A stretch of DNA of 64,000 nt from Thermoanaerobaculia bacterium (lineage in GTDB: Bacteria > Acidobacteriota > Thermoanaerobaculia > Multivoradales > Multivoraceae). The DNA lies in the NCBI GenBank assembly GCA_965116955.1, contig OZ220742.1:2703516-2767515 (forward strand), in the 5' to 3' direction. The position numbers and the translations under genes were made by a program. Shown in pieces: positions 18,408 to 37,644 of the stretch. The notes beneath the pieces are model-generated. The model made no database searches. It was given only the letters and a program-made list of their open reading frames with translations, and was not told the origin of the DNA. Position 1 is the first letter of the stretch; the number at the start of each line of letters is the position of its first letter.

Positions 18408-19910
<1,503 letters not shown>

Positions 19911-19953: not shown

Positions 19954-21186
19954 ATGACATCGAAGCGTTCGTACCCCGTACTCGGCTGCGTGGCAGCCCT
20001 TGCTTTGCTCCTCGCCGCCTGCGGTGGCGGCGGCTACGGCGGCGGCGACGAGACCGCCGGCGACGGGCCGATGGCGCCGCGCTTCGAGGTCGATCCCTTC
20101 TGGCCGCAGCCGCTGCCGAACCACTGGATCCTCGGTCCGGCGATCGGGGTCACGGTCGACTCCCGCGACCACGTCTGGATCGTTCACCGGAACACGCCGG
20201 GCGCTTTCGGTGCGATCAACGAGATCGGCGCCGCGCAGGATCCGCCGCTCTCCGAGTGCTGCATTCCGGCGCCGCCGGTGCTGGAGTTCGATCCGGACGG
20301 CAACCTGGTCGGCCACTGGGGAGGGCCGAGCGAGACCGGCGAGTACGAGTGGCCGGCTTCGAACCACGGCATCCTCGTCGATCACATGGACAACGTGTGG
20401 ATCGGCGGCAACGGCGGCGGCGACTCCCACACGCTGAAGTTCACCCGCGACGGCCAGTTCCTGATGCAGGTGGGCAAGGCGAACGCCCTCGTCAACGAGG
20501 GCGCCGAGCCGCGCTTCGTGCGGAACAGCCACGACATGGAGAACTTCGGCCGGGTGGCGAAGCTGTCGGTCGACCCGGAGGCGAACGAGATCTACGTCGC
20601 CGACGGCTACTTCAACCGCCGGGTCGTCGTGATCGACGCCGACACCGGCGAGTTCAAGCGCTACTGGGGCGCCTACGGCGAGGCCCCGGACGACGAACTG
20701 GACCTCGGGCAGTACGTCCCCGGCGATCCGCCGGCGACGCAGTTCCGCGGTCCGATCCACTGCGCCGACATCTCCGCCGACGGCCTGCTCTACGTCTGTG
20801 ACCGCGCCGCCGACCGCATCCAGGTGTTCCAGGCCGACGGCACCTTCGTGAACGAGGTCTTCATCGCGCCCGAGACCCTGTCTCAGGGCTCGACCTGGGA
20901 TGTCGCCTTCTCGCCGGACGAGGAGCAGAAGTTCCTCTACCTGGCCGATGGCCAGAACATGAAGGTCTACGTGATCGAGCGCGCGAGCATGGAGGTGCTC
21001 TACGCCTTCGGCGACGGCGGCCGGCAGCCCGGCCAGTTCTTCGCCGTCCACAGCATCGCCACCGACTCGAAGGGCAACATCTACACGACCGAGACCTACG
21101 AGGGGAAGCGGCTGCAGAAGTTCGTCAACCTGGGGATGCGGCCCGTGCCGGAGGAGGACCTGGGGACTCCCTGGCCTTCGGACTAA
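19954..21186 (+). CDS. NHL-repeat six-bladed beta-propeller lipoprotein, similar to peptidyl-alpha-hydroxyglycine alpha-amidating lyase (PAL) by fold type.
   Basis: The lipobox is LLLAAC. Repeated NHL-type blades appear as DHVWIV, DNVWIGG, NEIYVADG and DGLLYVCD. The 410 aa protein is Gly-rich at its N-terminus. Confidence 0.7.
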   Translation: MTSKRSYPVLGCVAALALLLAACGGGGYGGGDETAGDGPMAPRFEVDPFWPQPLPNHWILGPAIGVTVDSRDHVWIVHRNTPGAFGAINEIGAAQDPPLSECCIPAPPVLEFDPDGNLVGHWGGPSETGEYEWPASNHGILVDHMDNVWIGGNGGGDSHTLKFTRDGQFLMQVGKANALVNEGAEPRFVRNSHDMENFGRVAKLSVDPEANEIYVADGYFNRRVVVIDADTGEFKRYWGAYGEAPDDELDLGQYVPGDPPATQFRGPIHCADISADGLLYVCDRAADRIQVFQADGTFVNEVFIAPETLSQGSTWDVAFSPDEEQKFLYLADGQNMKVYVIERASMEVLYAFGDGGRQPGQFFAVHSIATDSKGNIYTTETYEGKRLQKFVNLGMRPVPEEDLGTPWPSD

Positions 21187-23228
21187 CCCGGGAGCCGGTA
21201 CGCGATCAGCTCGAACGGCTCGCCGCGGCCGCCGATGGAGACGACGAGGTACTGCACGCCGCGGTGCAGGTAGGTGATCGGACTGCCGTCGGAGTGGGCC
21301 GGCAGTTCAACCTCGGCGGCCAGCTCGCCCGTCGCCTTGTCGAAGGCCCTTAGAGCCGGCACGGTGTAGCGCCAGTCTTCGCGCGCCGCCGACCGCGGAT
21401 CGGTCCAGGCCAGACCGCCGGTGACTTCCTCGGGCTGTTCGGACCACTCCCGCTCCGCCTTCGCTTCCTGGGAGCGGAAGGAGCGCGAGTGACCTGAGCT
21501 GACGATCAGGAGTGTCTTCGTGACCAGGGCGTGGCCGCGGACCCCTGAGCCCAGGAGCGGCAGGTCGAGGCCGGCAAGCTTCGGGTGTCGCCGCGGCCCC
21601 TCGCCGAGCGGAACCTGCCAGGCGATGTCGCCGCGGCTCATGTCGTAGGCGGTGACCCGCGAGTACGGCGGCTTCGAGATCGGCAGGTCGAAGGGGCCGT
21701 GGAAGCCTGACACTCTGGCCACGAAGTCGAAGGACGAGCGGTTCGGGTCGGGACGTCTGAGCGTGATCAGGATCGGCGCCGTGAAGGACGGCACGTAGAG
21801 CCTTCCCGTGTCCGGGTCGAAGGCGCCGCCGGGCCAGCTCGCTCCGCCTTCGAAGCCGGGCATGGCGACGGTGCCGCGCTCACTGGGCGGCGTGTAGATC
21901 GGGCCGTACTGGTGCGAGGTCAGGATGCGTTCCGCCTCGGCGCGGATCTCGGGGGTGAAGTCGATGACGTCGGCGAGCTGCATGCCCTGGCGATCGAACG
22001 GCGGCGGCTTGGTGGGGAAGGGCTGCGTGGCCGAGGTCTGCTCGCCGGGGATGCCGGTCTGGGGGACCTGCCGCTCCTCGATCGGCCAGAGGGGTTCGCC
22101 GGTCTCCCGGTCGAAGACGTAGAGGAACGCCTGTTTGCTGGGCAGCATCGCGGCCTTGACGGTGCGCCCGTCGACGACGACGTCGCCCAGTACCGCCGGA
22201 GCGGCGAAGTCGTAGTCCCAGAGACCGTGGTGGACGGCCTGGAAGTGCCAGCGGCGCTCGCCCGTTTCGCAGTCGACGGCGACCAGGCTCTCGGCGTACA
22301 GGTTGTCGCCGCGGCGGTGACCGCCGTACCAGTCGTTCGTCGGCGTGCTGGTCGGCAGGTAGGCGAGGCCGAGTTCCTCGTCGGCGCTCATCAGGCCCCA
22401 GACGTTCGCGCCGCCGGTGATCCGCCAGGACTCGTCCTCCCAGGTGTCCGTGCCGAGCTCACCCTCCTGGGGCACGGTGTGGAAGGTCCAGAGCTGACGG
22501 CCCGTGCGCACGTCGAAGCCCCGCACGTCGCCCGGCGGTCCGTCGTCGGGGCCGAGCGGCCCGTCCGAGATGGACGAGCCGACGATCGCGACGTCGCGGC
22601 AGATGGTCGCCGGCGAGCTGACGGTGTACTTGCGGCGTTCGACGGCCCGGTGCAGGCCGGCGGTCAGATCGACGCCGCCGTGGTTGCCGAAGGAGCGCAC
22701 CGCCGTGCCTTCGTCGGCGTAGATGGCGCGCAGGATGGCGTCCGTGCTGGCGTAGATGAGACGGCCGGGGGCCTCGGGGCGCTCGGGATCGCGCCAGAAG
22801 CTGGGTCCCTTGTGGGTGAAGCCGTGGTTCGTGGGCCGGCCGTGGCCGTAGCTTTGCGGATCGTGCTGCCAGACCGTTGCGCCCGTTGCCGGATCCACGG
22901 CGGCGGCGATGCCGTAGCCCGTGACGACGTAGAGCCGGTCGCCGATCTTGATCGGCGTCGTGACGTGGGTGCGCTGCTTCATCGATGGGTCTTCGAAGCG
23001 CGGGTCGTTCGCCATCAGGTCGTTGTCCGGCAGCCGCCAGCGCCAGACCGGTTCGAGGCGTGCGAAGTTGCCGGCGTCGATCTGGTCGAGCGCGGCGTAG
23101 CGGCCGGCGTCGTTGCCGCCGGTGATGGTCGGCCAGTCGGTGTCCTGCGCCCAAGCCTGGGTAAGGCCTGGCAGTAGAAGTGCGGCGCCAAGGAGCGCCG
23201 CCGGTGCCGGCTGAGCCCCGCCGGACAT
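21183..23228 (-). CDS. PQQ-dependent dehydrogenase (quinoprotein, glucose/alcohol dehydrogenase family), secreted.
   Basis: The 681 aa protein has a signal peptide and repeated W-containing PQQ beta-propeller motifs (GATVWQHD, RQLWTF, RRWHFQ, EPLWPIE, DIAWQVPLG). Its stop overlaps the stop of the convergent NHL gene. Confidence 0.8.
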   Translation of the reverse strand: MSGGAQPAPAALLGAALLLPGLTQAWAQDTDWPTITGGNDAGRYAALDQIDAGNFARLEPVWRWRLPDNDLMANDPRFEDPSMKQRTHVTTPIKIGDRLYVVTGYGIAAAVDPATGATVWQHDPQSYGHGRPTNHGFTHKGPSFWRDPERPEAPGRLIYASTDAILRAIYADEGTAVRSFGNHGGVDLTAGLHRAVERRKYTVSSPATICRDVAIVGSSISDGPLGPDDGPPGDVRGFDVRTGRQLWTFHTVPQEGELGTDTWEDESWRITGGANVWGLMSADEELGLAYLPTSTPTNDWYGGHRRGDNLYAESLVAVDCETGERRWHFQAVHHGLWDYDFAAPAVLGDVVVDGRTVKAAMLPSKQAFLYVFDRETGEPLWPIEERQVPQTGIPGEQTSATQPFPTKPPPFDRQGMQLADVIDFTPEIRAEAERILTSHQYGPIYTPPSERGTVAMPGFEGGASWPGGAFDPDTGRLYVPSFTAPILITLRRPDPNRSSFDFVARVSGFHGPFDLPISKPPYSRVTAYDMSRGDIAWQVPLGEGPRRHPKLAGLDLPLLGSGVRGHALVTKTLLIVSSGHSRSFRSQEAKAEREWSEQPEEVTGGLAWTDPRSAAREDWRYTVPALRAFDKATGELAAEVELPAHSDGSPITYLHRGVQYLVVSIGGRGEPFELIAYRLPG

Positions 23229-24173: not shown

Positions 24174-25148
24174 TCAAGAGCGCTGCATGACCATCTTGCC
24201 GATGATCTTGCGGTCCATCATGTCGCGAAGCGCCTGCGGCACCTCTTCCAGGGGGTACCGGCGCGAGATGTACGGCTGGATCTTTCCGGAGGCGGCGAGG
24301 GCTTCCGTTTCGACCCGGGTCGCCTCGAAGATCTCCGGCTCGCGCATCCTGGAGGCGCCCCAGAACACACCGACGACGTCGCAGCCCTTGAGCAGAGTGA
24401 GATTGAGCGGCATGCGCGGAATGCCGGCGGTGAAGCCGATCACAAGGAACCGGCCGCGCCAGTTGGTGGCGCGTAGCGCCGCCTCGGCGTAGTCGCCGCC
24501 GACCGCGTCGTAGACGACGTCTACGCCCTTGCCGTCCGTCAGCTCCTTGGCGCGGTTCTTCAGGTCCTCTTCGGCGTAGTTGATCGTCTCATCGGCGCCG
24601 CGTTCGCGGCAGAGCGCCAGTTTCTCCTCGCTCGAGGCGGCGGCGATCACGCGCGCGCCCATCACTTTGCCCAGCTCCAGGGCGGCAAGGCCGACGCCGC
24701 CGGCGGCACCGAGCACGAGAAGCGTCTCGCCCGGCTTCAGGTTGCCCCGGTACTTCAGCGCGTAGTGGCCGGTGCCGTAGGCGTAGCCGTACCCCGTGGC
24801 CTCGGCGTGGCCGAGCCCCGGCGGCAGCTTGCGCACCTGCGACGCCTTGAGCAGCACCTGCTCGGCGAAACCGCCGGTGCCGCCGCCGCCGACCACGTCG
24901 TCACCGACTGCGAGGCCGTTCACATCCGGCCCGACGGCGGCGATCCTGCCGCCGACCTCACCGCCGACGACGAAGGGCGGCTCTCCCCGGAACTGGTAAC
25001 GGTTCTCGATGATCAGGGTGTCGGGCCAGGTAATCGCTGCTGCCTGGATGTCGACGACGACTTCGCCCGGTCCCGGGGCCGGATCGGGAAGTTCCTCGAT
25101 CGTCAGGTTCTCCGGGGGGCCGAATGCGCTGCATACAACTGCCTTCAT
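24174..25148 (-). CDS. NADPH:quinone oxidoreductase / zinc-type MDR alcohol dehydrogenase family.
   Basis: An internal Met MKAVVCSAFGPPENL.. begins the MDR fold, with a Rossmann motif LVLGAAGGVGLAALELGK. The ORF track's 618 aa version carries an implausible Arg/Gly-rich N-extension. Confidence 0.8.
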   Translation of the reverse strand: MKAVVCSAFGPPENLTIEELPDPAPGPGEVVVDIQAAAITWPDTLIIENRYQFRGEPPFVVGGEVGGRIAAVGPDVNGLAVGDDVVGGGGTGGFAEQVLLKASQVRKLPPGLGHAEATGYGYAYGTGHYALKYRGNLKPGETLLVLGAAGGVGLAALELGKVMGARVIAAASSEEKLALCRERGADETINYAEEDLKNRAKELTDGKGVDVVYDAVGGDYAEAALRATNWRGRFLVIGFTAGIPRMPLNLTLLKGCDVVGVFWGASRMREPEIFEATRVETEALAASGKIQPYISRRYPLEEVPQALRDMMDRKIIGKMVMQRS

Positions 25149-25183
25149 GGTTGCCTCTGGACGTAGTTCAGGGAAGTTCGCTG

Positions 25184-26764
25184 TCAGATCTGCCGCTCGC
25201 GGCCCTTCCAGTACGGCGCCCGGACCAGGCCCCGCTGGATCTTGCCGGTGGGCATGCGCGGCAGGTCGGTCGCGAAGTCGATGGAGCGGGGCCGCTTGAA
25301 GTCGGGCAGGTGCTCGCGGCACCAGGCCAGGAGTTCCTCGGCCAGTTCGTCGCCCGCTTCGTAGCCTTCGTCGACCTCCACGACCGACTTGACGCTTTCG
25401 CCCCACTCGTCGTGGGGAACGCCGACGGTGCAGACCTCGTAGACCGCCGGGTGCTGCTGGATCACGTCGTCGATCTCCTGGGGGTAGATGTTGACGCCGC
25501 CGGCGATGATCGTCTCCGCCGAGCGGCCGGTCAGGAACAGGTAGCCGTCCTCGTCGACGTAGCCCATGTCGCCCATCGTGAAGTAGTCGTCGCGGTAGGC
25601 GGAGGCGGTCTTGTCGGGGGCCTTGAAGTAGACGAAGCTGTTCTCGGACGCCTCGAAGTAGACCGTGCCGGTGCTTCCGCTCGGCACCGGCTCGCCGTTG
25701 TCGTCGAGCACCTTGTAGTTCGTTCCCTCCACGGTGCGGCCGACGCTGCCGGGCTTCTCGAGCCACTCCTTCGAGTCGACCCAGAAGGTGCCGCCCTCGG
25801 TGGCGGCGTAGTACTCCCATACCACGGGACCGAACCAGTCGATGACCTTGTGCTTGACCTGGACCGGCGTCGGCGCCGCGCCGTGGCAGAGCCAGCGCAT
25901 CGAGGAGACGTCGTAGCGGTCGCGGACCTCCTGAGGCAGCGCCAGCATGCGGTGGAACATCGTCGCCACCATGTGCGTGTGGGTCACGCGGTGCCTGTCG
26001 ATGAGGGCGAGCGTTTCCTCGGCATCCCACCTGTCCATCAGCACGGAGCCGACGCCGGCGCCCATCGGCATCGCCAGGTTCAGACCGAGGGGTGCGGCGT
26101 GGTAGAGCGGCCCGGTGACGAGGGAGCAGTCCGTGTCGGGCTCGAAGTCGCCCGACTCACGGACTGCCAGCAGGAACGGCGTCGGCGTCGGATCCGCCTT
26201 GCGGTACACGCCCTTGGGATGGCCGGTGGTGCCGGACGTGTAGAGCATCGGTGCGCCGAGGATCGGGTCGTCGATGTTCGAGCCGTCTTCGGCCGCCAGC
26301 GCCTCGTCGTAGGACTCGGCGCCCTCGATCTCGCCGCCGACTGCCAGTGTCAGGCGCAGGTGGCTGGAATCGGCCTGAGCCGCGGCGACGGCCGGCGCGA
26401 AGGCCGCGTCGGCGATCAGCACGAGGGCCTCGCAGTTGTCGGCGATGTAGGCGACTTCGGGCGGCGAGAGGTGCCAGTTGATCGGCGTCATGCGTCCGCC
26501 GGAGCGCTGGCAGGCAACCACGGTCTCGATGAACTCCGGCCGGTTCCGGCAAAGCAGGGCGACGCCGACGTCGGGACCGACGCCATGCGCCCGCAGCACG
26601 CGGGCCAGCCGATTGGCGTTGGCGTTCAGTTCGCCGAGGGTTCGGCCGCCGAACTTCGAGAGCACGGCCATCCGCTCGGGAGCCACATCGGCGTGCACCG
26701 CGACGCCCATGCCGTAGGGCGCTGCCGCCATGAGTCGTTCCTGTAGTTCGAGGTCGATCGCCAT
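25184..26764 (-). CDS. Acyl-CoA synthetase (AMP-binding, ANL superfamily).
   Basis: The AMP-binding motif MLYTSGTTGHPKGV is present, with YAATEGG, a hinge-Asp region and C-terminal LPRMPTGKIQR. Confidence 0.85.
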   Translation of the reverse strand: MAIDLELQERLMAAAPYGMGVAVHADVAPERMAVLSKFGGRTLGELNANANRLARVLRAHGVGPDVGVALLCRNRPEFIETVVACQRSGGRMTPINWHLSPPEVAYIADNCEALVLIADAAFAPAVAAAQADSSHLRLTLAVGGEIEGAESYDEALAAEDGSNIDDPILGAPMLYTSGTTGHPKGVYRKADPTPTPFLLAVRESGDFEPDTDCSLVTGPLYHAAPLGLNLAMPMGAGVGSVLMDRWDAEETLALIDRHRVTHTHMVATMFHRMLALPQEVRDRYDVSSMRWLCHGAAPTPVQVKHKVIDWFGPVVWEYYAATEGGTFWVDSKEWLEKPGSVGRTVEGTNYKVLDDNGEPVPSGSTGTVYFEASENSFVYFKAPDKTASAYRDDYFTMGDMGYVDEDGYLFLTGRSAETIIAGGVNIYPQEIDDVIQQHPAVYEVCTVGVPHDEWGESVKSVVEVDEGYEAGDELAEELLAWCREHLPDFKRPRSIDFATDLPRMPTGKIQRGLVRAPYWKGRERQI

Positions 26765-26878: not shown

Positions 26879-28195
26879 ATGGCCGCCGCGAACATGCCCG
26901 AGACGGTCGAGTTGACCGACCGTGACCGGGCCATGCTCGCGGGCGAGTGCGGTCAAGCCGCGGCGGTCGCGATGCGCATCCTGGCCACGATGGCCGGCGT
27001 CTACGGCGCGGAGCGGCTGCTCGACATCGAGGGCGCCCACATCGACGGTTGCCTCTACCACGGCGACTCGGGCGTCGACTTCGCGGAGCTTCTCGTCGCC
27101 GGTGGAGCGCGGGTTCGAGTACCGACGACATTGAACGTCGGCGGCCTCGATCTGCTGCACCCGGAGGAGTTCTCCGGCACGGCGGAACGTCGGGCGAAGG
27201 CGCTGCGACTGATGGAGTGCTACGAGGAGATGGGTTGCCGGACGATCTGGACCTGCGCGCCTTACCAGACGACGCCGCGGCCCGCGTTCGGGCAGCAGGT
27301 GGCCTGGGCGGAGAGCAACGCGATCGTGTTCGCGAACTCGGTGCTCGGTGCGCGCACCCACCGCTACGGCGACTTCATCGACATCTGCGCCGCGATCACC
27401 GGACGGGCGCCGGCGGGAGGGCTCCACCTGGAGGAGAACCGGCGCGGGCAGGTCGTGTTCGACCTGCGCTCGTTGCCGCCGGCTCTCCGGAGCGCGTCCT
27501 GGCTGCTGCCGGCGATCGGCTATCTGGTGGGGGAGCGCTGCGGCAACCGGATTCCCGTGCTGCTCGGCCTGGAGCAGGCGGACGAGGACGGCCTGAAGGC
27601 GCTGGGGGCGGCCGCGGCTTCTTCGGGTGCGGTCGCCCTGTTCCACGCGGTTGGCATCACACCCGAGGCACCGACGCTGGAGGCGGCGCTCGGCGGCGGG
27701 GAAGCCGAAGAGTGGGTCGATGTCACCGTGGATGATCTGCACGCAGGGCTGCGCAGTCTGTCGACGGTCCCCGCGGCTGCGGCTTCGAGTCCCGGCGCCG
27801 GCGGAGACCTGGCGATCGATGTCGTGGCCCTGGGCAGCCCCCACTTCTCACCGCGCGAGTTCGCTGAACTGCTGCCGCTCGTCGAGCGCCATCCGCCGGC
27901 CGGGAGCGTCGAGTTCGTCGTCTGCACGAATCGCGTTTCGCTCGGCTTCCTGGAGGGGCAAGGGGCTCTCGGGCGGCTGCGCAACCTCGGAGTCCGCGTG
28001 GTGGTCGACACCTGCGTCGTCGTGGCTCCGATCCTGCGTTCTCCGGCGGGCGGCGTGCTGATGACGAACTCCGGCAAGTTCGCCCACTACGCGCCAGGCA
28101 ATGTCGGCTTCGACGTCGTCTTCGGCAGTCTGGCCGAGTGTGTTCGCTCGGCGCATCGCGGCCGGCTGTGCCGTGATCCGGCGTTGTGGCCATGA
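26879..28195 (+). CDS. Aconitase X large (catalytic, DUF521) subunit of a two-subunit AcnX type IIa enzyme, probably a hydroxyproline-type dehydratase.
   Basis: The 438 aa protein has AcnX/DUF521-like segments CTYHGDSG, WAESNAIVFANSVLGARTH and VVDTCVVVAPI. It is followed by a DUF126 small subunit with an ATGA overlap. Confidence 0.75.
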   Translation: MAAANMPETVELTDRDRAMLAGECGQAAAVAMRILATMAGVYGAERLLDIEGAHIDGCLYHGDSGVDFAELLVAGGARVRVPTTLNVGGLDLLHPEEFSGTAERRAKALRLMECYEEMGCRTIWTCAPYQTTPRPAFGQQVAWAESNAIVFANSVLGARTHRYGDFIDICAAITGRAPAGGLHLEENRRGQVVFDLRSLPPALRSASWLLPAIGYLVGERCGNRIPVLLGLEQADEDGLKALGAAAASSGAVALFHAVGITPEAPTLEAALGGGEAEEWVDVTVDDLHAGLRSLSTVPAAAASSPGAGGDLAIDVVALGSPHFSPREFAELLPLVERHPPAGSVEFVVCTNRVSLGFLEGQGALGRLRNLGVRVVVDTCVVVAPILRSPAGGVLMTNSGKFAHYAPGNVGFDVVFGSLAECVRSAHRGRLCRDPALWP

Positions 28196-28614
28196 GCGTC
28201 GTGGAACTCGAGGGCCGGGCCCTGGTCGCCGGTGCCGGTGCCGGCGCTGCGCTGCGGCTCGAGGAGCCGCTGTCGTTCTGGGGCGGCGTCGATCCGGTGA
28301 CGGGGACGATCATCGACCGGAGGCATCCGCGCTGTGGCGAGAGCGTCTCCGGCCGCGTCCTCGTGATGCCCTACGGGCGGGGGTCGAGCAGTTCGAGTTC
28401 GGTTCTGCTCGAGGGTGTACGTCTCGGTACGGCGCCGGCGGCCGTGGTGCTGCGGGAGCTCGACGGCATTCTGGCGCTGGGCGCCGCTGTGGCCCGGGAG
28501 CTTTACGAGCGGTCGCCGCCGGTGGTCCTTCTCGAAGCGGCGGACTGGGAGGCTCTGCCGGAAGGAGCAGGGGCCTCGGTCGACGTCAGCGGCCGCCTGC
28601 GGATCGCAGGCTGA
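28192..28614 (+). CDS. Aconitase X small (swivel, DUF126) subunit.
   Basis: DUF126 signature PLSFWGGVDPVTGTIIDRRHP..GRVLVMPYGRGSSSSSSVL. Its start overlaps the large-subunit stop. Confidence 0.75.
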   Translation: MSVVELEGRALVAGAGAGAALRLEEPLSFWGGVDPVTGTIIDRRHPRCGESVSGRVLVMPYGRGSSSSSSVLLEGVRLGTAPAAVVLRELDGILALGAAVARELYERSPPVVLLEAADWEALPEGAGASVDVSGRLRIAG

Positions 28615-29836
28615 CGTTCCAGGACGTCCAGACCCAGACCTTGAAGGTGTCGGTGCCGAACTCGTCCGCGTTGTACTGCGCCAGCTTGATGCCGAAGTCC
28701 TGCTTCCAGGGCGTGTTCCAAACCGCCATCGCGTCGATCTCGGTGCCGTAGTCCAAGCTGCCGACCGCGGAGCGGAACTGGTGCCAGCGAAGCGTCCAGT
28801 TCCAGGTGTCGAGGTTGTGGTCCAGCCGGAGGTAGACGTCGACCAGGCCGTTCGCAGGGGTGCCCAGGAACTTGTCGGTCCAGCCGTTGAAACCGTGGAG
28901 CGTCGCCAGCGGCGTGCGGAAGCCGTACGTTCCGTCGCCATCGAGGGCTTCGCGCACCGCGCGCATGCTGATGTCGCCGCGCGTGAAGCCGATCCCGGTC
29001 TTCTGGTAGTCGAGGTCGACGCTGCCCGGATGGTCCGCCCAGTCCGACTGGACCGCGTACTGGAGTTCCCAGAGAACGGAGGCCGCGCCGGCGTCGTGGG
29101 AGCCGTTGTAGCTGGCGCCCCAGTTGGACGTCGAGTTGGCCGCGGCGCCGGGTCGCTCGTAGTCCAGCAGGTAGCCGAACAGGGCCAGGTTGCCGGGTCC
29201 TGCCGGACCGGAGACGTAGATCACGTGCGAGCCCATCGGTTCCTCGGCACCGGTGATCCGGTGGGCGCGGTCGAGGAACGCGTAGCGAAGGGACCAGTCG
29301 GCGCGCAGCTTCGCGTCGAGGGCGGCCGCGTCGAAGGCCTGGTGGTGCTGGCGCCAGCCGACCGCGCCGACGAAGCGCTGGTCGCCGATCAGAAGTTCCG
29401 TCCGGCCCAGCGTGAAGGCCACCGGCCCGCGCTCCAGCTTCGCCGCGGCCTGGTTGATCGCCGTGAGCGCTGGATCGGCGATGACCGGACGGTCGCGGAC
29501 GCCGTTGTCGAGACTGCCGTAGCCGAGGTTGCGGTAGCTACTGTCGCTGCCGACCGGGGTCACGTCCTCCGCCTCCAGCAGGAACGAGAAGCCGCGGAAG
29601 GGCTTCGTCTGCAGCTTGAGGGTCGTCCGCAGCGTCGAAGCGAGCGCCGCGCTGTCGAACGCATCGTCGTCGGATTGCTCGACGCGGTAACGGAGACCGA
29701 CCGAAACGTCCGCGTCGCGGATCGCCTCTCCAAGGGTCCCCGGCTCCTGAGGAACGTTCTCCTCGTCGCCTTGCGCGAGACCGGGCGAAGTGCCGAGGGT
29801 TGCGCTCAGCGCCAGCGGAATCAGACACTTGCGCAT
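28586..29836 (-). CDS. Alginate-export-family outer-membrane beta-barrel porin.
   Basis: The protein has a signal peptide and alternating amphipathic beta-strands rich in aromatics. It is similar in length and ends to AlgE-like porins (RYRVE..., ...WTSWNVSLR). Confidence 0.65.
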   Translation of the reverse strand: MRKCLIPLALSATLGTSPGLAQGDEENVPQEPGTLGEAIRDADVSVGLRYRVEQSDDDAFDSAALASTLRTTLKLQTKPFRGFSFLLEAEDVTPVGSDSSYRNLGYGSLDNGVRDRPVIADPALTAINQAAAKLERGPVAFTLGRTELLIGDQRFVGAVGWRQHHQAFDAAALDAKLRADWSLRYAFLDRAHRITGAEEPMGSHVIYVSGPAGPGNLALFGYLLDYERPGAAANSTSNWGASYNGSHDAGAASVLWELQYAVQSDWADHPGSVDLDYQKTGIGFTRGDISMRAVREALDGDGTYGFRTPLATLHGFNGWTDKFLGTPANGLVDVYLRLDHNLDTWNWTLRWHQFRSAVGSLDYGTEIDAMAVWNTPWKQDFGIKLAQYNADEFGTDTFKVWVWTSWNVSLRSAGGR

Positions 29837-29930
29837 GATCGGGTTGGCTAGTCGAGGGAAAAGAAGGTGGAGTCGGCTGAGGCCGTCGGCAGTATAACCG
29901 CCGGCTGAGGTGGCCTCCGGCGCGCCGCTC

Positions 29931-31751
29931 TCACTCGGCCGGCGGGCCGCCGACCCAGATCGGCGACGACCAGGCGCGTTCCTGGATCGTCGCTTGCAGC
30001 TCGGGCCGGGGTGCGACGCCGGCCTTGATCGCGTCCCAGGTCGACCAACGGCACGTCGGGTTCTCCAGCGCCCGGAGGTAGTAGAAGGCGTGCTGGCCGG
30101 CTTCGAATCCCGGGTCTTGCCAGAGGGCGACGAGTTCCGAGGCTCCCTTGTCCGGCGTGATGCTGCAGTCGGAGAGATCGACCTCGGCGCCGTTGTCGGG
30201 GCAGCGATGGGTTTCGGGATCGGGAGTCAGGCCATCAGAGCACGCAACGTCGAACACCTGTTCCATCGCCTGCCCATCGTCGCTCCAGCCCTTGATCATC
30301 TGCACTCGCTGCAGCGGCGTGCCGAGCGGATCCTGGAGTGCCCAGACGAGGAAGCGGGGAGAGGCGGCACCGTCCGAGCCGGCCGGCAGTTCGCCGCCCA
30401 TCGGCACGCCTTCGGCGTAGGCGATGTCGACCGCGTCGTCGCGCTCGACCAGATCGTCCGGGTAGACGCCGGCAAAGAAACGGACGACGATCCGTGGGCC
30501 GCTGGTGGCGAAGGTTTCCTTGCGGCGGAACGCTCCGTAGATCGACTCTCGGGTGTTCTCCTCCGCCCAGACGCCGGCGAGGCCGGAGGCGCTCCAGGTC
30601 TTGTAGTAGGTGTCGTTGTAGGCCGTCACGCCCTCGTCCGAGGCGATCGGCACGGAGCCGCGGAGTTCCGCCGTCGCATCCAGGATGCCGACCTTGGCGA
30701 CGAAGTTCGATTCGTCTAGGGAAGCTCCGCCGTTGTGCGTGTCGCTGGCGCCAACCAGGCCGAAACGGTAGGGGTTGACGCCCCGCTCTGCCTGGAGCCT
30801 GAGCCCGCGCAGGTAGGCGTCGCGGGCGTAGGAGCCGCGCGGCCTCGACTTGTTCCACTGGGCGATCCGGTAGGGCATGATCTCGAAGTCGGCCCACTCG
30901 TCGTTCGGCGACAGGAAGGGGTGGGTGTCGGAGGTGCCCTTGACCTGGGTGACCTCGACCAGGGGCTCGTTCCGCATCCTGGTCTCGGCGTAGGCGGCGT
31001 CGATCGGCTCGCCCGCGAAGTTCACGAGCTGGAACATGTGGCCGTCCGAGCCGTTCGAGTTGTGGGGGATCGCGAGGGCTTCGATGCCGCGCGATCGGAG
31101 ATCGTCCATCCAGGCCCAGAGGTCTTCGGGGTTGATCGAGTCAGTGCGTCCGTACGGGTAGTCCGGCACCGCGTCGCCCCTGAAGATCACGTTGCGGTGC
31201 AGGTTGCCGCGATCGCGGCTCGAGGTGTACTCGTAGGCGGGGAAGGTGGTGAAGTTCCCGGGGTCGTTGTGCCGTTCGGCCGCCTCGACCGTCCGCTTCC
31301 AGGCGGAGCGGATGACGTCCACGTCGCGATGCTCCCGCACGTACGCCCCGCTGCGGAAGGCGCGCCGCTTCTCCGCAATCGTGCGGGCCTGCGTGAAGTC
31401 GGCCGCCCGCTCGAGCTTCGACAACGGGTGGTCCGGCTGCGACATCGCCTCCAGCATGCCCAGGTAGTTGGCGTGGTCGGTAACCGCCAGGAAGTCCAGC
31501 GGACGGTCGAGCTGTAGGTCGAAGCCGCCGGGATGCTCGATCGCCTTGCCCTTGGCGAACTCGTAGGCGTCGTCCGGCGTGCTGCGGGTGCCGAAGATGA
31601 AGGCGTCGAACGAGTAGCGGGTGTGGACGTGCAGATCGCCGAACAGGGCCCTCCGGTCGGACTCCTCGGCAATCGCGGCGGGAGCTCCGCAGAGCATCAG
31701 GAGGATCGTGGTTCCCAGAGTTCCGGTTGAGTTGGCCAGCACCTTCCGCAT
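29931..31751 (-). CDS. DUF3604-family (PHP-fold-like) secreted protein. The start was taken at the internal Met, which is preceded by an AGGGAGG SD.
   Basis: After MRKVLAN... and a signal peptide comes GDLHVHTRYSFDAF (PHP His-x-His), plus LAVTDHANYLG and ASDTHNGGAS. It is cotranscribed upstream of the porin. Confidence 0.7.
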   Translation of the reverse strand: MRKVLANSTGTLGTTILLMLCGAPAAIAEESDRRALFGDLHVHTRYSFDAFIFGTRSTPDDAYEFAKGKAIEHPGGFDLQLDRPLDFLAVTDHANYLGMLEAMSQPDHPLSKLERAADFTQARTIAEKRRAFRSGAYVREHRDVDVIRSAWKRTVEAAERHNDPGNFTTFPAYEYTSSRDRGNLHRNVIFRGDAVPDYPYGRTDSINPEDLWAWMDDLRSRGIEALAIPHNSNGSDGHMFQLVNFAGEPIDAAYAETRMRNEPLVEVTQVKGTSDTHPFLSPNDEWADFEIMPYRIAQWNKSRPRGSYARDAYLRGLRLQAERGVNPYRFGLVGASDTHNGGASLDESNFVAKVGILDATAELRGSVPIASDEGVTAYNDTYYKTWSASGLAGVWAEENTRESIYGAFRRKETFATSGPRIVVRFFAGVYPDDLVERDDAVDIAYAEGVPMGGELPAGSDGAASPRFLVWALQDPLGTPLQRVQMIKGWSDDGQAMEQVFDVACSDGLTPDPETHRCPDNGAEVDLSDCSITPDKGASELVALWQDPGFEAGQHAFYYLRALENPTCRWSTWDAIKAGVAPRPELQATIQERAWSSPIWVGGPPAE

Positions 31752-31882
31752 GTTGGTGACCTCCCTTCGCTTGGTTTCGTCGATTGATCTACGGCAACCC
31801 ACAATACGCCAGCTTCGTTCGGGTACACTTACTGAGCACAGACCAAGGATCCGAGCCAGCGAGCGAACCGGAGACCAGAATC

Positions 31883-33214
31883 ATGAAGACCGCGACCTCT
31901 CGTCCCATCCTGCTCATGCTCGTCGCCGCCGTCGCCGTTCCCGGCTTCGGTCTGGCCGCCGACGCGGACACGCCGACGTTCTACGCCGACGTCCTGCCGG
32001 TTCTGCAGGAGAACTGCCAGACCTGCCACCGGCCGGAAGGCGAGGGCGAGAACATCGGCGGCATGATCGCGCCGATGCCGCTGATGACGTACCAGCAGAC
32101 CCGGCCCTGGGCGCGATCCATCGCGCGCGCGGTCGAGAATCGCTCGATGCCGCCCTGGTTCGCGACCGAGGCGACCCGCGGGCAGTTCCACCATGAGCGG
32201 GTCATGTCGGACGACGAGATCGAGACGGTCCTCGCCTGGGTCCGCGCCGGCTCGCCCGCCGGCGACGCGGCCGCCGCGCCGCCGACGAAGAAGTTCGTTG
32301 AGGAGGGCTCCGGCGGCTGGTCGCTTGGGCGCCCGGACTTGGTCGTTGCGATGCCCGAGGAGTACTGGGTGGCCGACGACATCGCCGACATCAACATCAA
32401 CTTCGAGACGGAGCTCACCGAGGAGATGCTCCCCGAACCCGTCTGGGTGCGCGGCGTCGAGTTCAAGGTCGGCGGAAGCGATGTCCATCACATGTGCGCC
32501 AGCGTTCGGCCTCCGGGCGGCGCGACGGCGCTCGGCAAGTTCAGCGACAGCTCGCTGGGCTGCATCGCGCTCGGCGCCGAGAGCCACCTGATGGAGCCCG
32601 GCTACGCGATGAAGCTCGAACCCGGATCGACGATCGAGTTTTCGATGCACTACAACAAGGAGGCCGGCGAGGGCAGCGGTTTCCATGACCGCTCCGAGAT
32701 CGGCTTCGTCTTCGCCGATTCCCCGGAGAGCGAACTGCGCGAGGTCAAGTTCGACTCGATCGGCAACCTGACGTTCGAGATTCCACCCCGCCACGAGCGC
32801 TGGAAGGTCGGCGCGGCACGGGTTTTCCCGGTCGAGACCGACATCCTGGCCCTGTGGCCGCACGCCCACCTGCGGTCGGTGGCGGTGCGCTACGACGCGT
32901 ACTACCCGGACGGCACGACCGAGGTCCTGCTCGACGTGCCGAACTACGACCAGGAATGGCAGACGACCTACCAGTACAAGAAGCCGAAGACGATTCCCGC
33001 CGGCACTCGGGTCGAGGTTTCGATGTGGTTCGAGAACACGCCCGAACGCGGCGAGGAGCGCGGCTTCGATCCGGCGGACAACGTGATCAACGGTACGGCG
33101 ACGACCGACGAGATGATGCTCGGCTTCGTGGCCTGGGCGCCGGTTGAGCCGGTCGATCCGATCGCGCTCCGCCTCGGAGTCGCCTCGATTCAGAGCACCG
33201 GCGGCGGGGAGTAG
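31883..33214 (+). CDS. Cytochrome c domain fused to a copper type II ascorbate-dependent-monooxygenase-like (PHM/DBH-like) domain, secreted.
   Basis: After a signal peptide comes heme motif CQTCH plus PPWF. The fused domain shows DVHHMCASV and FSMHYNKE (CuH-site His-His..His spacing like PHM HHM...VHYG), then ALWPHAHLR (H-x-H) and TDEMMLGF (Met ligand, as in PHM DEM). Confidence 0.7.
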   Translation: MKTATSRPILLMLVAAVAVPGFGLAADADTPTFYADVLPVLQENCQTCHRPEGEGENIGGMIAPMPLMTYQQTRPWARSIARAVENRSMPPWFATEATRGQFHHERVMSDDEIETVLAWVRAGSPAGDAAAAPPTKKFVEEGSGGWSLGRPDLVVAMPEEYWVADDIADININFETELTEEMLPEPVWVRGVEFKVGGSDVHHMCASVRPPGGATALGKFSDSSLGCIALGAESHLMEPGYAMKLEPGSTIEFSMHYNKEAGEGSGFHDRSEIGFVFADSPESELREVKFDSIGNLTFEIPPRHERWKVGAARVFPVETDILALWPHAHLRSVAVRYDAYYPDGTTEVLLDVPNYDQEWQTTYQYKKPKTIPAGTRVEVSMWFENTPERGEERGFDPADNVINGTATTDEMMLGFVAWAPVEPVDPIALRLGVASIQSTGGGE

Positions 33215-33224
33215 GTAGGCGGGA

Positions 33225-33893
33225 ATGACCGGTTTGCGCGGGCGGCGGCTGCCTTCGGTCGCCGCCGTCCTGCTGTTCTCGGCAGCGGCGTTTGCGGCGC
33301 CGGCGGCGAGTCAGTTCGCCGAGACCGCCGAAGTCATCGAGAAGCCCTCGAAGGAGGGTGAGGGCCGCAAGCTCGACGCGTCCGGACTGACCAACGCCTT
33401 CAAGCTACTGGTCGCCGCGACGCGTTCGATCGACAAGGCCGAGATCGGCGGCGGCATGGTCGAGGTGAACGCCGGCAGGCTGCCGCTCCTCGGCGTGGAC
33501 TGGGAGGCGTTGCAGGAACACGAACAGGGCCTCTTCGAGTTTCAGACCGCGGCCGCGATCAAGCTGCGCACGGAGGCCGACATCGTGGTCGGTGAACTCG
33601 AGGTGCCGGCCGGCAACGTCTCGCCCGGTTTCGCGGGTCTCTACAGCCTGTGGCTCCATCTGGACGACGATGGCCAGTGGGTGCTGATCGTGAACCACGA
33701 ACCCGATGTCTGGGGCACGATGCACGATCCGGCAAAGGACCTGGGCGAGACCCGGCTGGAGCACTCCGTTGTCGAGGGCGGGAAGTCGCGGCTGACGATC
33801 GCCATCGAGCCGCCCGAAGGTGACGCTCCCGGGACGCTCAAGCTGTCCTGGGGCGAGCACCTCTGGCAGACGACGGTCTCAGCCGCCGGCTAG
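33225..33893 (+). CDS. Hypothetical secreted protein (222 aa) directly downstream of the cytochrome c-PHM gene.
   Basis: A signal peptide is present. The 11-nt gap to the upstream gene suggests an operon. No motif was recognised. Confidence 0.5.
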   Translation: MTGLRGRRLPSVAAVLLFSAAAFAAPAASQFAETAEVIEKPSKEGEGRKLDASGLTNAFKLLVAATRSIDKAEIGGGMVEVNAGRLPLLGVDWEALQEHEQGLFEFQTAAAIKLRTEADIVVGELEVPAGNVSPGFAGLYSLWLHLDDDGQWVLIVNHEPDVWGTMHDPAKDLGETRLEHSVVEGGKSRLTIAIEPPEGDAPGTLKLSWGEHLWQTTVSAAG

Positions 33894-33934: not shown

Positions 33935-33951
33935 TCATCCGGCGCGAAGCG
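33935..33951. terminator. Perfect 7-bp GC hairpin CCGGCGC-gaa-GCGCCGG between convergent genes. Possible terminator, though it lacks a clear U-tract.
   Basis: Read directly from the sequence. It lies between the stops at 33893 (+) and 33971 (-). Confidence 0.3.
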
Positions 33952-33970
33952 CCGGCTTCCCGACACTCTG

Positions 33971-37050: not shown

Positions 37051-37644
37051 ATGCCGAAGCTCGTGAGAGGGTTGTTCGCGGTTATTGGTCTGTTGCTACT
37101 GGGACTGCACGTTGAGCCCATTCGCGCCGGGGAAGCGGAGGTGCCGGAACGGGCCGGTGCTGCCGGTTCGGTCGCGGCGGCAAGCGAGGACGGTTGCGTC
37201 GAAAGCGCCACGACGCTGTGCCTGCAAGAGGGTCGCTACGAGGTGACGGTCGAGTTCACGGCGAACGGCGAGACGATGCCCGCCAGGGTGGCGAGGCCTC
37301 GCACGGAGGACTCGGGCCTCTTCTACTTCTTCGAGCCGAACAACTGGGAGATGCTGCTCAAGGTACTCGACGGCTGCGGCGTCAACCAGCACCACTGGGT
37401 GTTCGCCGCCACGGCGAGCGATGTCGGCATCCGGCTGGTCGTTCGCGACACGACCCTCCCGGACCAGAATGCCGACGGCACCATGATCGTCAACTCGAGG
37501 ACGTACGACTTCCCGCCGATCACCAGGCGGCCCCAGGGGCCGGACGAGTCCGACGAGGACTACGCGCAGAACGTTCTCGCCAAGGGCCATCCGGCGCTGA
37601 CGGAAGTAGGCGCCTTCCCCGACGCCTGTCCGGCGAGCAGCTAG
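37051..37644 (+). CDS. Hypothetical secreted protein (197 aa).
   Basis: An ATG is preceded by GAGGAGAGGA. The signal peptide is MPKLVRGLFAVIGLLLLGLHVEPIRAG. Cysteine pairs are present. Confidence 0.5.
   Translation: MPKLVRGLFAVIGLLLLGLHVEPIRAGEAEVPERAGAAGSVAAASEDGCVESATTLCLQEGRYEVTVEFTANGETMPARVARPRTEDSGLFYFFEPNNWEMLLKVLDGCGVNQHHWVFAATASDVGIRLVVRDTTLPDQNADGTMIVNSRTYDFPPITRRPQGPDESDEDYAQNVLAKGHPALTEVGAFPDACPASS

Follow-up and report, generated by a model that had tools for sequence, protein, structure and literature searches.

A cytochrome c fused to a PHM/DBH-type copper core is paired with a DUF2911 protein in Acidobacteriota

The window analyzed in this study is a 64,000-nucleotide stretch of the Thermoanaerobaculia contig OZ220742.1 (positions 2,703,516 to 2,767,515), and its subject is a two-gene locus encoding a 443-residue cytochrome c/copper protein and a secreted DUF2911 protein. 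We are highly confident that the first of these is a heme c/PHM-type di-copper protein, related in its copper core to peptidylglycine alpha-hydroxylating monooxygenase (PHM), dopamine beta-hydroxylase (DBH), and tyramine beta-monooxygenase (TBM). Its domain composition, its fold, the conservation of its heme and copper ligands, and the adjacency and fusion of DUF2911 were established here. The protein is most likely a periplasmic monooxygenase that works independently of ascorbate. An initial annotation made from the letters of the window had claimed a cytochrome c fused to a PHM/DBH-like di-copper domain, and our Pfam, fold, and ligand-alignment results supported this claim. The gene and its N-terminal features are the following, in window coordinates.

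31883..33214, plus strand: cytochrome c/PHM-like copper protein gene, 443 aa (open reading frame and translation; stop codon included)
31883..31957, plus strand: predicted Sec-type signal peptide, residues 1-25 (...PGFGLA, then AD), by sequence inspection, with a putative cleavage site
31970..32260, plus strand: mono-heme class-I-type cytochrome c domain, residues ~30-126 (Pfam PF00034, residues 42-121)
32015..32029, plus strand: heme attachment motif C45-Q-T-C48-H49, invariant in 44 homologues
32147..32161, plus strand: M89-P-P-W-F, invariant, with Met89 as the probable distal (sixth) heme ligand

The open reading frame (ORF) is intact, with 443 codons plus a stop. A GGAG lies 9 nt before its ATG at 31883, and homologues align to the same start with their N termini. 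A longer, TTG-initiated start at 31784 was not supported. The N terminus (MKTATSRPILLMLVAAVAVPGFGLA|AD) resembles a Sec signal peptide and has no lipobox cysteine, which is consistent with heme attachment in the periplasm. A hydrophobic N terminus was present in all 44 aligned homologues of our family alignment (A1; 47-91% identity). The motifs that the initial annotation had named all occur in the order it gave: CQTCH at residues 45-49, PPWF at 90-93, HHM at 202-204, MHY at 255-257, HAH at 327-329, and DEMM at 409-412, all invariant in the 44 homologues. Chance does not account for such a pattern. The individual residues found invariant in this alignment were C45, C48, H49, M89-P-P-W-F, H202, H203, C205, C227, H256, H327, H329, E410, and M411.

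The heme domain scored 24.3 bits against PF00034 (Cytochrom_C; cut-off, 21.3) over residues 42-121 and profile positions 9-87 of 90, with weaker matches to Cytochrome_CBB3 and Haem_bd. These three families were matched by 42-44 of the 44 homologues. A CxxCH motif and an above-threshold PF00034 score are what a class I c-type cytochrome calls for, and both were found. To look beyond the family, we ran phmmer on 1.84 billion representatives with a query limited to the copper core (residues 140-443). This search returned 4776 clusters at E<=1e-3, 2305 at E<=1e-10, and 106 at E<=1e-30, and the 150 best representatives (29-61% identity) were aligned to the family hidden Markov model. An aligned CxxCH was present in 103 of the 150, and the other 47 were gapped in these columns. 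The gaps fell mostly in short proteins, so many of these are probably fragments. The M89 column was Met in all 117 representatives that cover it, making Met89 a probable candidate for the distal heme ligand. From these alignments, the heme module appears to be a constant companion of the bacterial copper core. The heme domain had no significant match among PDB sequences, and an NCBIfam scan of the whole protein gave a single, sub-threshold SoxX-like match in the same domain. A comparison with a Pseudomonas cytochrome c551 sequence aligned the C-terminal helix alone (E 0.002) and was not relied on.

The remainder of the protein is occupied by two predicted copper domains, and the ligands within them were placed by aligning the family profile to rat PHM with hhalign.

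32315..32731, plus strand: CuH (electron-transfer) beta-sandwich domain, residues ~145-283, from AlphaFold2 strands 153-277, Foldseek, and hhalign; boundaries approximate
32732..33157, plus strand: CuM (O2-binding, catalytic) beta-sandwich domain, residues ~284-425, from a weak PF03712 match and the fold search
32486..32494, plus strand: H202-H203-M204, predicted CuH ligands equivalent to PHM H107/H108 (VHHM on VHHM)
32648..32650, plus strand: H256, predicted third CuH ligand, equivalent to PHM H172 (MHY on VHY)
32861..32869, plus strand: H327-A-H329, predicted CuM ligands equivalent to PHM H242/H244 (PHAH on VHTH)
33113..33115, plus strand: M411 (in DEMM), predicted CuM thioether ligand equivalent to PHM M314 (DEMM on DEMC)

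The AlphaFold2 model had a mean pLDDT of 82 and a pTM of 0.79, and the latter value indicates a compact multi-domain model. When this model was compared with the PDB by Foldseek, the top 31 chains were all DBH or PHM (E 1.5e-12 to 9e-8), with 280-330 aligned columns spanning both beta-sandwiches and a TM score on the target of 0.53-0.68. The best match was human dopamine beta-hydroxylase (4ZEL; E 1.5e-12, 308-329 columns), followed by rat PHM (E 3e-11 to 9e-8). After these 31 chains the search dropped to unrelated folds at E 4e-5. The model thus contains the two-beta-sandwich catalytic core of the PHM/DBH/TBM group. The initial annotation had named assignment of the C-terminal domain to an unrelated fold as a result that would overturn it; the C-terminal ~300 residues were assigned to the PHM/DBH fold and to no unrelated one.

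Sequence profiles were less sensitive to this relationship. The protein reached 14.0 bits against PF03712 (Cu2_monoox_C; cut-off, 23) over residues 321-419, and PF01082 (Cu2_monooxygen) gave no Pfam match at E up to 1, so that both curated thresholds lie above the window protein. PF03712 was matched weakly by 27 of the 44 homologues (best E 1.6e-5), and some relatives exceeded its threshold (P0186, 24.0 bits; P0210, 28.0 bits; P0244, 25.9 bits). Neither of two PDB sequence searches, one with the single protein and one with the 44-sequence profile, reached PHM or DBH. The relationship was bridged by the structure search and by hhalign alone. As the hhalign template we used the rat PAM sequence in native numbering, recovered from the PDB. 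The family profile aligned to it at E 0.0021 over 208 columns with a probability of 13%, a low value because the template is a single sequence.

In this alignment all copper ligands fall in order, as the initial annotation had read by eye, with H202, H203, and H256 on the CuH ligands and H327, H329, and M411 on the CuM ligands of rat PHM. The same columns hold across the distant representatives. The H202 column was His in 128 and the H203 column in 135 of the 137 that cover them; the H256 column was His in 143 of 145, the H327 column in 145 of 148, and the H329 column in 144 of 147, and the M411 column was Met in 141 of 141. The complete H-H-H-H-H-M set was retained in 122 of the 130 representatives covering all six columns. 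Three His at CuH, two His and one Met at CuM, and a requirement for two electrons are defining features of this enzyme class (PMC4846438). The predicted ligands of the window protein reproduce both the CuH His-His...His and the CuM His-x-His...Met arrangement. With the fold and the ligand columns both upheld, the earlier interpretation stands.

Compared with PHM, the catalytic core of PAM (1PHM, 1OPM, 3MLL), the window protein has the same two-beta-sandwich core, the same ligand order, and nearly the same spacing (70 residues from H172 to H242 in PHM, 71 between their equivalents here), and the two share the local motifs VHHM, xHY, HxH, and DEM. The two differ in that identity is ~15% and that the window protein is bacterial and periplasmic, adds an N-terminal heme c, and has no PAL partner. 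It also has one conserved disulfide pair (C205/C227), where PHM has several disulfides.

The substrate site sets the two proteins further apart. PHM R240, N316, and Y318, which we take from the PHM-substrate structure 1OPM to be the anchors for the C-terminal carboxylate of the peptide, align by hhalign to W325, L413, and F415. In the 150 representatives the R240-equivalent column held M, F, W, L, T, or A and was never Arg. Because the Arg/Asn/Tyr anchor of PHM proper is replaced by Trp/Leu/Phe, a glycine-extended peptide is an exceedingly improbable substrate. Given matching fold and metal ligands, unmet Pfam thresholds, and an absent substrate anchor, we refer to the protein as a PHM/DBH-type copper core and not as a PHM orthologue or a peptidylglycine hydroxylase. 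"PHM-like" describes its fold and metal sites, not its substrate.

These residues bear directly on the possibility that the protein is a true bacterial PHM orthologue that amidates peptides together with an NHL/PAL-type lyase. Such an enzyme would share the PHM fold and metal ligands, and an NHL propeller gene does lie about 11 kb away.

19954-21186, plus strand: NHL-repeat beta-propeller protein (PDB sequence matches, NCBIfam)

The initial annotation had regarded this gene as PAL-like. Its product proved to be a generic NHL propeller, closer to TRIM NHL domains than to PAL: among PDB sequences it matched the TRIM71/Thin NHL domains at 1e-12 and PAL only at 2.5e-5, and it had a weak ScyF-like NCBIfam match (65.8 bits; cut-off, 350). 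We compared the proteins neighboring the enzyme in the window with six-frame ORFs of 83 related loci, and an NHL homologue lay within 8 kb of the enzyme in 4 of them. The proposed link was not borne out, and the association with a PAL-type NHL lyase that marks bifunctional PAM was not found at these loci. Clustering of neighbor ORFs revealed no conserved precursor-peptide gene nearby. With an R240 position that is never Arg, these results make peptide amidation exceedingly improbable.

The one gene that does accompany the enzyme is immediately downstream.

33225..33893, plus strand: secreted 222-aa DUF2911 protein gene, probably co-transcribed (Pfam PF11138; 10 nt downstream of the enzyme gene)
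33939..33955, no strand assigned: perfect GC-rich hairpin CCGGCGC-GAA-GCGCCGG within the 77 nt that separate the DUF2911 gene from the convergent MFS transporter gene

The initial annotation had noted a co-oriented secreted protein at this position. We confirmed it and identified it as a DUF2911 protein, which is the sole neighbor conserved across clades. The 222-residue product carries a signal peptide and scored 33.1 bits against PF11138 (cut-off, 27) over residues 111-214, and PF11138 is the precomputed assignment for all of its close homologues. In 78 of the 83 related loci, the next gene downstream of the enzyme gene, on the same strand, encodes a DUF2911 homologue. The remaining five contigs stop <800 nt past the enzyme gene, so the partner was present at 78 of 78 informative loci, spanning Thermoanaerobaculia, Vicinamibacterales, and one Acidimicrobiia. 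Unbiased clustering of the neighbor ORFs from the 83 loci found no other family common to different clades. The DUF2911 protein is the one obligate partner of the copper enzyme. No T-run follows the hairpin past its gene, and the terminator scan did not report it; that it ends a two-gene transcript is speculative.

The partner was also found in the same polypeptide. DUF2911 is fused to the C terminus of the enzyme in four clusters (P0184, P0186, P0187, and P0208, the last a fragment), giving single-chain cytochrome c-PHM-like-DUF2911 metagenome proteins of 579-607 aa. The fusion junctions are polar and contain no internal signal peptide, which favors real fusions over frameshift artifacts, and the linkers share a D(A/S)VDxxR(L/F) motif; all four are single-member clusters on short contigs of ~3 kb. 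The order of modules is such that the heme is N-terminal to the CuH domain and DUF2911, if fused, is C-terminal to the CuM domain. In Vicinamibacterales, the partners (L027-L083; for example, L002 9385-10623) are ~375-450 aa long with two tandem DUF2911-like domains, and in a few loci (L029, L037, L042, and L044) the partner ORF reaches ~750-810 aa.

Could the DUF2911 protein itself be the substrate, with the copper site hydroxylating or cross-linking one of its residues to mature it? The strict one-to-one adjacency and the occasional fusion would fit, PHM itself acts on peptides, and the partner has invariant residues, mostly aromatic or polar, that might be modified (Y140, W143, W152, W163, W209, and W214, together with N131, N157, D161, D168, and D172). 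Its alignment contains no conserved Cys or Met. However, it would be unusual for an enzyme to carry its stoichiometric substrate fused in cis, the flexible N-terminal region of the partner differs between clades, the tandem DUF2911 domains of Vicinamibacterales show no obvious conserved target motif, and the peptide-binding residues of PHM are absent. We consider this possibility quite improbable and favor the DUF2911 protein as an accessory to the enzyme.

The family to which the enzyme belongs is large. A sequence search returned >1073 homologues of the same length, nearly all of them either without a name or labeled "mono/diheme cytochrome c family protein," and >574 loci in species-representative genomes. 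The best 80 of these loci were all from Acidobacteriota, plus one Acidimicrobiia. Metagenome-assembled genomes (MAGs) of Ca. Multivorans, Thermoanaerobaculia, and "Holophagales" at 87-97% identity form the window's own clade by taxonomy, and Vicinamibacterales homologues are at ~50% identity. Going by isolate labels, the closest relatives of this clade may be MAGs associated with sponges and corals. Several single genomes carry paralogous enzyme-partner pairs (L053/L055, L063/L070, L058/L080, L044/L064, and L029/L065), which would fit an enzyme that diversifies its substrates.

Many relatives of 600-800 aa have a sister architecture (600-1250 aa overall) in which the order is Redoxin/AhpC-TSA, cytochrome c, PHM-like core, and EF-hand (P0193, P0206, P0210, P0218, P0235, and P0244; loci L084-L086). 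These proteins are widespread in Planctomycetota, Verrucomicrobiota, and Armatimonadota. Their records, such as those from Maioricimonas rarisocia and Horticoccus sp., read "redoxin family protein" or "thiol-disulfide oxidoreductase." They share with the window protein the cytochrome c plus PHM-like supradomain, the CxxCH, the MPP Met, and all six copper ligands, at 31-37% identity in the copper core. They differ by the extra N-terminal redoxin and C-terminal EF-hand and lack the C205/C227 pair and W325. At the three sister loci inspected there was no DUF2911 neighbor, and our literature search found no study of redoxin-cytochrome c-PHM-like-EF-hand proteins. The retention of CxxCH and six ligands across diverse representatives and architectures suggests that the heme c plus PHM-like unit is an ancient, widespread bacterial supradomain. 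Within it, the window protein represents a subfamily distinguished by the C205/C227 pair and W325. As separate observations, P0193 appears to carry two redoxin-cytochrome c-PHM-like-EF-hand units in tandem, and the neighbors of the sister genes vary (sulfatases and a TonB receptor; a SoxA/TsdA-like cytochrome; PSCyt1/DUF1552).

The redoxin domains raise the question of whether the protein handles copper, as a periplasmic store, chaperone, or cuprous oxidase with the heme as electron sink. Copper-delivery proteins such as Sco and TlpA also use the Redoxin/TlpA-like fold that the sister proteins carry. The PHM fold does hold two solvent-exposed, labile copper sites (PMC4846438). No cop, cus, or cue gene is adjacent, however, a strict His2Met plus His3 geometry across 4776 clusters exceeds what storage needs, and the DUF2911 partner would be left unexplained. 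A copper-handling role is therefore very unlikely in our judgment.

We consider it rather probable that the locus encodes a two-gene, periplasmic, heme-fed copper monooxygenase of the PHM type, acting on a non-peptide substrate with the aid of DUF2911. In this model, the enzyme would leave the cytoplasm through Sec and acquire its heme as c-type cytochromes do, with its modules ordered heme c, CuH, CuM; the CuH and CuM domains would together constitute a non-coupled binuclear copper monooxygenase core like that of PHM, DBH, and TBM. The covalent heme would accept electrons one at a time from the respiratory pool of the periplasm and pass them to CuH, which in the animal enzymes is reduced by ascorbate, and CuH would then reduce CuM. 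It is plausible that the heme replaces ascorbate as the electron donor. CuM would bind O2 and hydroxylate a C-H bond of the substrate, a non-peptide molecule that may sit in a hydrophobic or aromatic pocket with help from DUF2911. The DUF2911 protein, an all-beta, Trp-rich secreted partner, would act physically at the CuM end of the enzyme, most likely as a substrate-binding or substrate-presenting subunit. We infer metal occupancy, the direction of electron flow, the O2 chemistry, the role of the partner, and the nature of the substrate.

Several known systems resemble parts of this model. DBH and TBM (4ZEL) provide the best structural match and are likewise multidomain, with an accessory domain N-terminal to the copper core. 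In DBH this accessory domain is a DOMON beta-sandwich without heme ligands, and electrons come from ascorbate (PMC4846438). In the window protein, by contrast, it is a helical c-type cytochrome with a predicted covalent heme, and there is no dimerization domain. A heme donor for a secreted copper monooxygenase has precedent in Cbp2D/Cbp2E, whose c-type cytochrome domains reduce bacterial LPMOs, and the cytochrome domain of fungal cellobiose dehydrogenase likewise serves LPMO as an extracytoplasmic heme donor that replaces a small-molecule reductant (PMC8981238). In these cases, however, donor and monooxygenase are separate proteins, and LPMO is a single histidine-brace copper enzyme of unrelated fold.

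A third comparison, with the cytochrome c-tethered copper nitrite reductase (CuNiR; 2ZOO), bears on whether the protein oxidizes an organic substrate at all. In that enzyme a periplasmic c-type cytochrome domain is fused to a copper enzyme, as here, and the cytochrome domain is the built-in electron donor. One potential alternative is thus a small-molecule reductase or terminal oxidase, in which the heme c would feed coppers that reduce O2, H2O2, nitrite, or NO. The tethering resembles that of CuNiR, and the heme domain had a weak match to 2zoo (E 0.61). In PHM crystals, copper takes up nitrite and azide (3mib, 3mlk, and 3mll), and clustering of neighbors at the 83 loci revealed no conserved substrate-related gene. 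However, CuNiR is a cupredoxin trimer that reduces nitrite with T1/T2 copper, whereas the window protein has a PHM/DBH fold in Foldseek, with both ligand sets (His3 and His2Met) and the CuM Met retained exactly as in monooxygenases. No nir, nor, or nos gene is adjacent, and an obligate, sometimes fused, non-redox DUF2911 partner together with paralogue expansion is easier to reconcile with a macromolecular or organic substrate. We regard a reductase or oxidase as unlikely and retain the monooxygenase as the preferred reading.

More tentatively, and with somewhat less than even confidence, we propose that these proteins represent a new class of self-sufficient, respiratory-chain-driven periplasmic C-H hydroxylase. 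This class would comprise thousands of proteins and form an ascorbate-independent bacterial branch of the PHM/DBH family, in which heme is hard-wired to the electron-entry copper and DUF2911 recruits a non-peptide, possibly hydrophobic or glycan, substrate.

In public databases, close relatives of the enzyme are deposited as "c-type cytochrome" and those of the partner as "DUF2911 domain-containing protein"; the bacterial superfamily as a whole is annotated as "c-type cytochrome," "redoxin family protein," or "hypothetical." In the literature we searched, mostly papers outside subscription journals, we found neither a bacterial cytochrome c-PHM-like enzyme nor a function for DUF2911 described, and a single paper mentioned DUF2911. 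The domain combination is visible in databases through weak PF03712 matches and is therefore not categorically new. The kind of enzyme, PHM/DBH/TBM, is already known; what is new is the present variant and the recognition of DUF2911 as its obligate partner, which gives DUF2911 its first functional context, as the sometimes fused companion of an oxidative copper enzyme.

PHM, DBH, and TBM are textbook animal enzymes, and in animals the PHM/DBH-type copper domain makes noradrenaline and amidated hormones. At 50% identity the bacterial superfamily comprises at least 4776 clusters and reaches into Acidobacteriota, Planctomycetota, Verrucomicrobiota, and Armatimonadota, which shows that animals are not the main source of this copper core. 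How electrons pass, and how tight coupling is achieved, between coppers >11 Angstrom apart in PHM/DBH/TBM is still unresolved (PMC4846438). If our model is correct, a covalent heme at the electron-entry side would permit transfer to be triggered and tracked optically or electrochemically, and ascorbate-free electron injection into the heme-linked bacterial version would make inter-copper transfer directly testable. The window's clade is Ca. Multivoraceae, and we speculate that a secreted hydroxylase could act there on host-derived or marine organic matter.

The wider neighborhood of the enzyme is specific to lineage. Recurrent neighbors among the 83 loci include imuA/imuB/dnaE2-like genes, a Ser/Thr kinase, and DUF1552, and the DUF3604, porin, AcnX, MFS, and carboxylesterase neighbors recur only in the window's close clade. 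Two other features of the window are the following.

28586-31802, minus strand: DUF3604 protein (Pfam, 739.8 bits) and Alginate_exp-type outer-membrane porin, divergent from the enzyme gene
21183-23228, minus strand: 681-aa PQQ-dependent dehydrogenase (Pfam PQQ, 593 bits), no CxxCH

The DUF3604-porin pair is present next door, as the initial annotation had reported. A functional link to the enzyme did not hold up, as the synteny is limited to the window's clade: DUF3604 and the porin are syntenic in 17 and 20 of 21 close-clade loci and absent from the 62 more distant ones. The PQQ-dependent dehydrogenase lacks a CxxCH and is thus not a quinohemoprotein. Across clades, 18 of the 83 loci had a homologue of it no more than 8 kb from the enzyme; such genes are presumably abundant in these genomes, and the proximity is probably due to chance.

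A promoter and terminator scan found nothing in or near the locus, and Rfam and tRNA scans gave no match in the whole 64-kb window. Further neighbors are an FGE-sulfatase-domain protein (16071-17378), a HupE/UreJ_2 protein (18408-19910), and aconitase X (26879-28195); of these three, AcnX was compared across the loci, and its position next to the enzyme was not conserved outside the close clade. On the minus strand at 24174-26764, a zinc-type alcohol dehydrogenase ORF (618 aa, with domains from residue 320) and an AMP-binding ORF (526 aa) overlap by ~850 nt, and the alcohol dehydrogenase start probably lies much further downstream than the longest ORF implies. Finally, a small secreted protein is encoded downstream of the carboxylesterase gene at 37060-37644 (plus strand). 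It occupies the same position in 17 close-clade loci, with extra paralogous matches in L014, L021, and L025.

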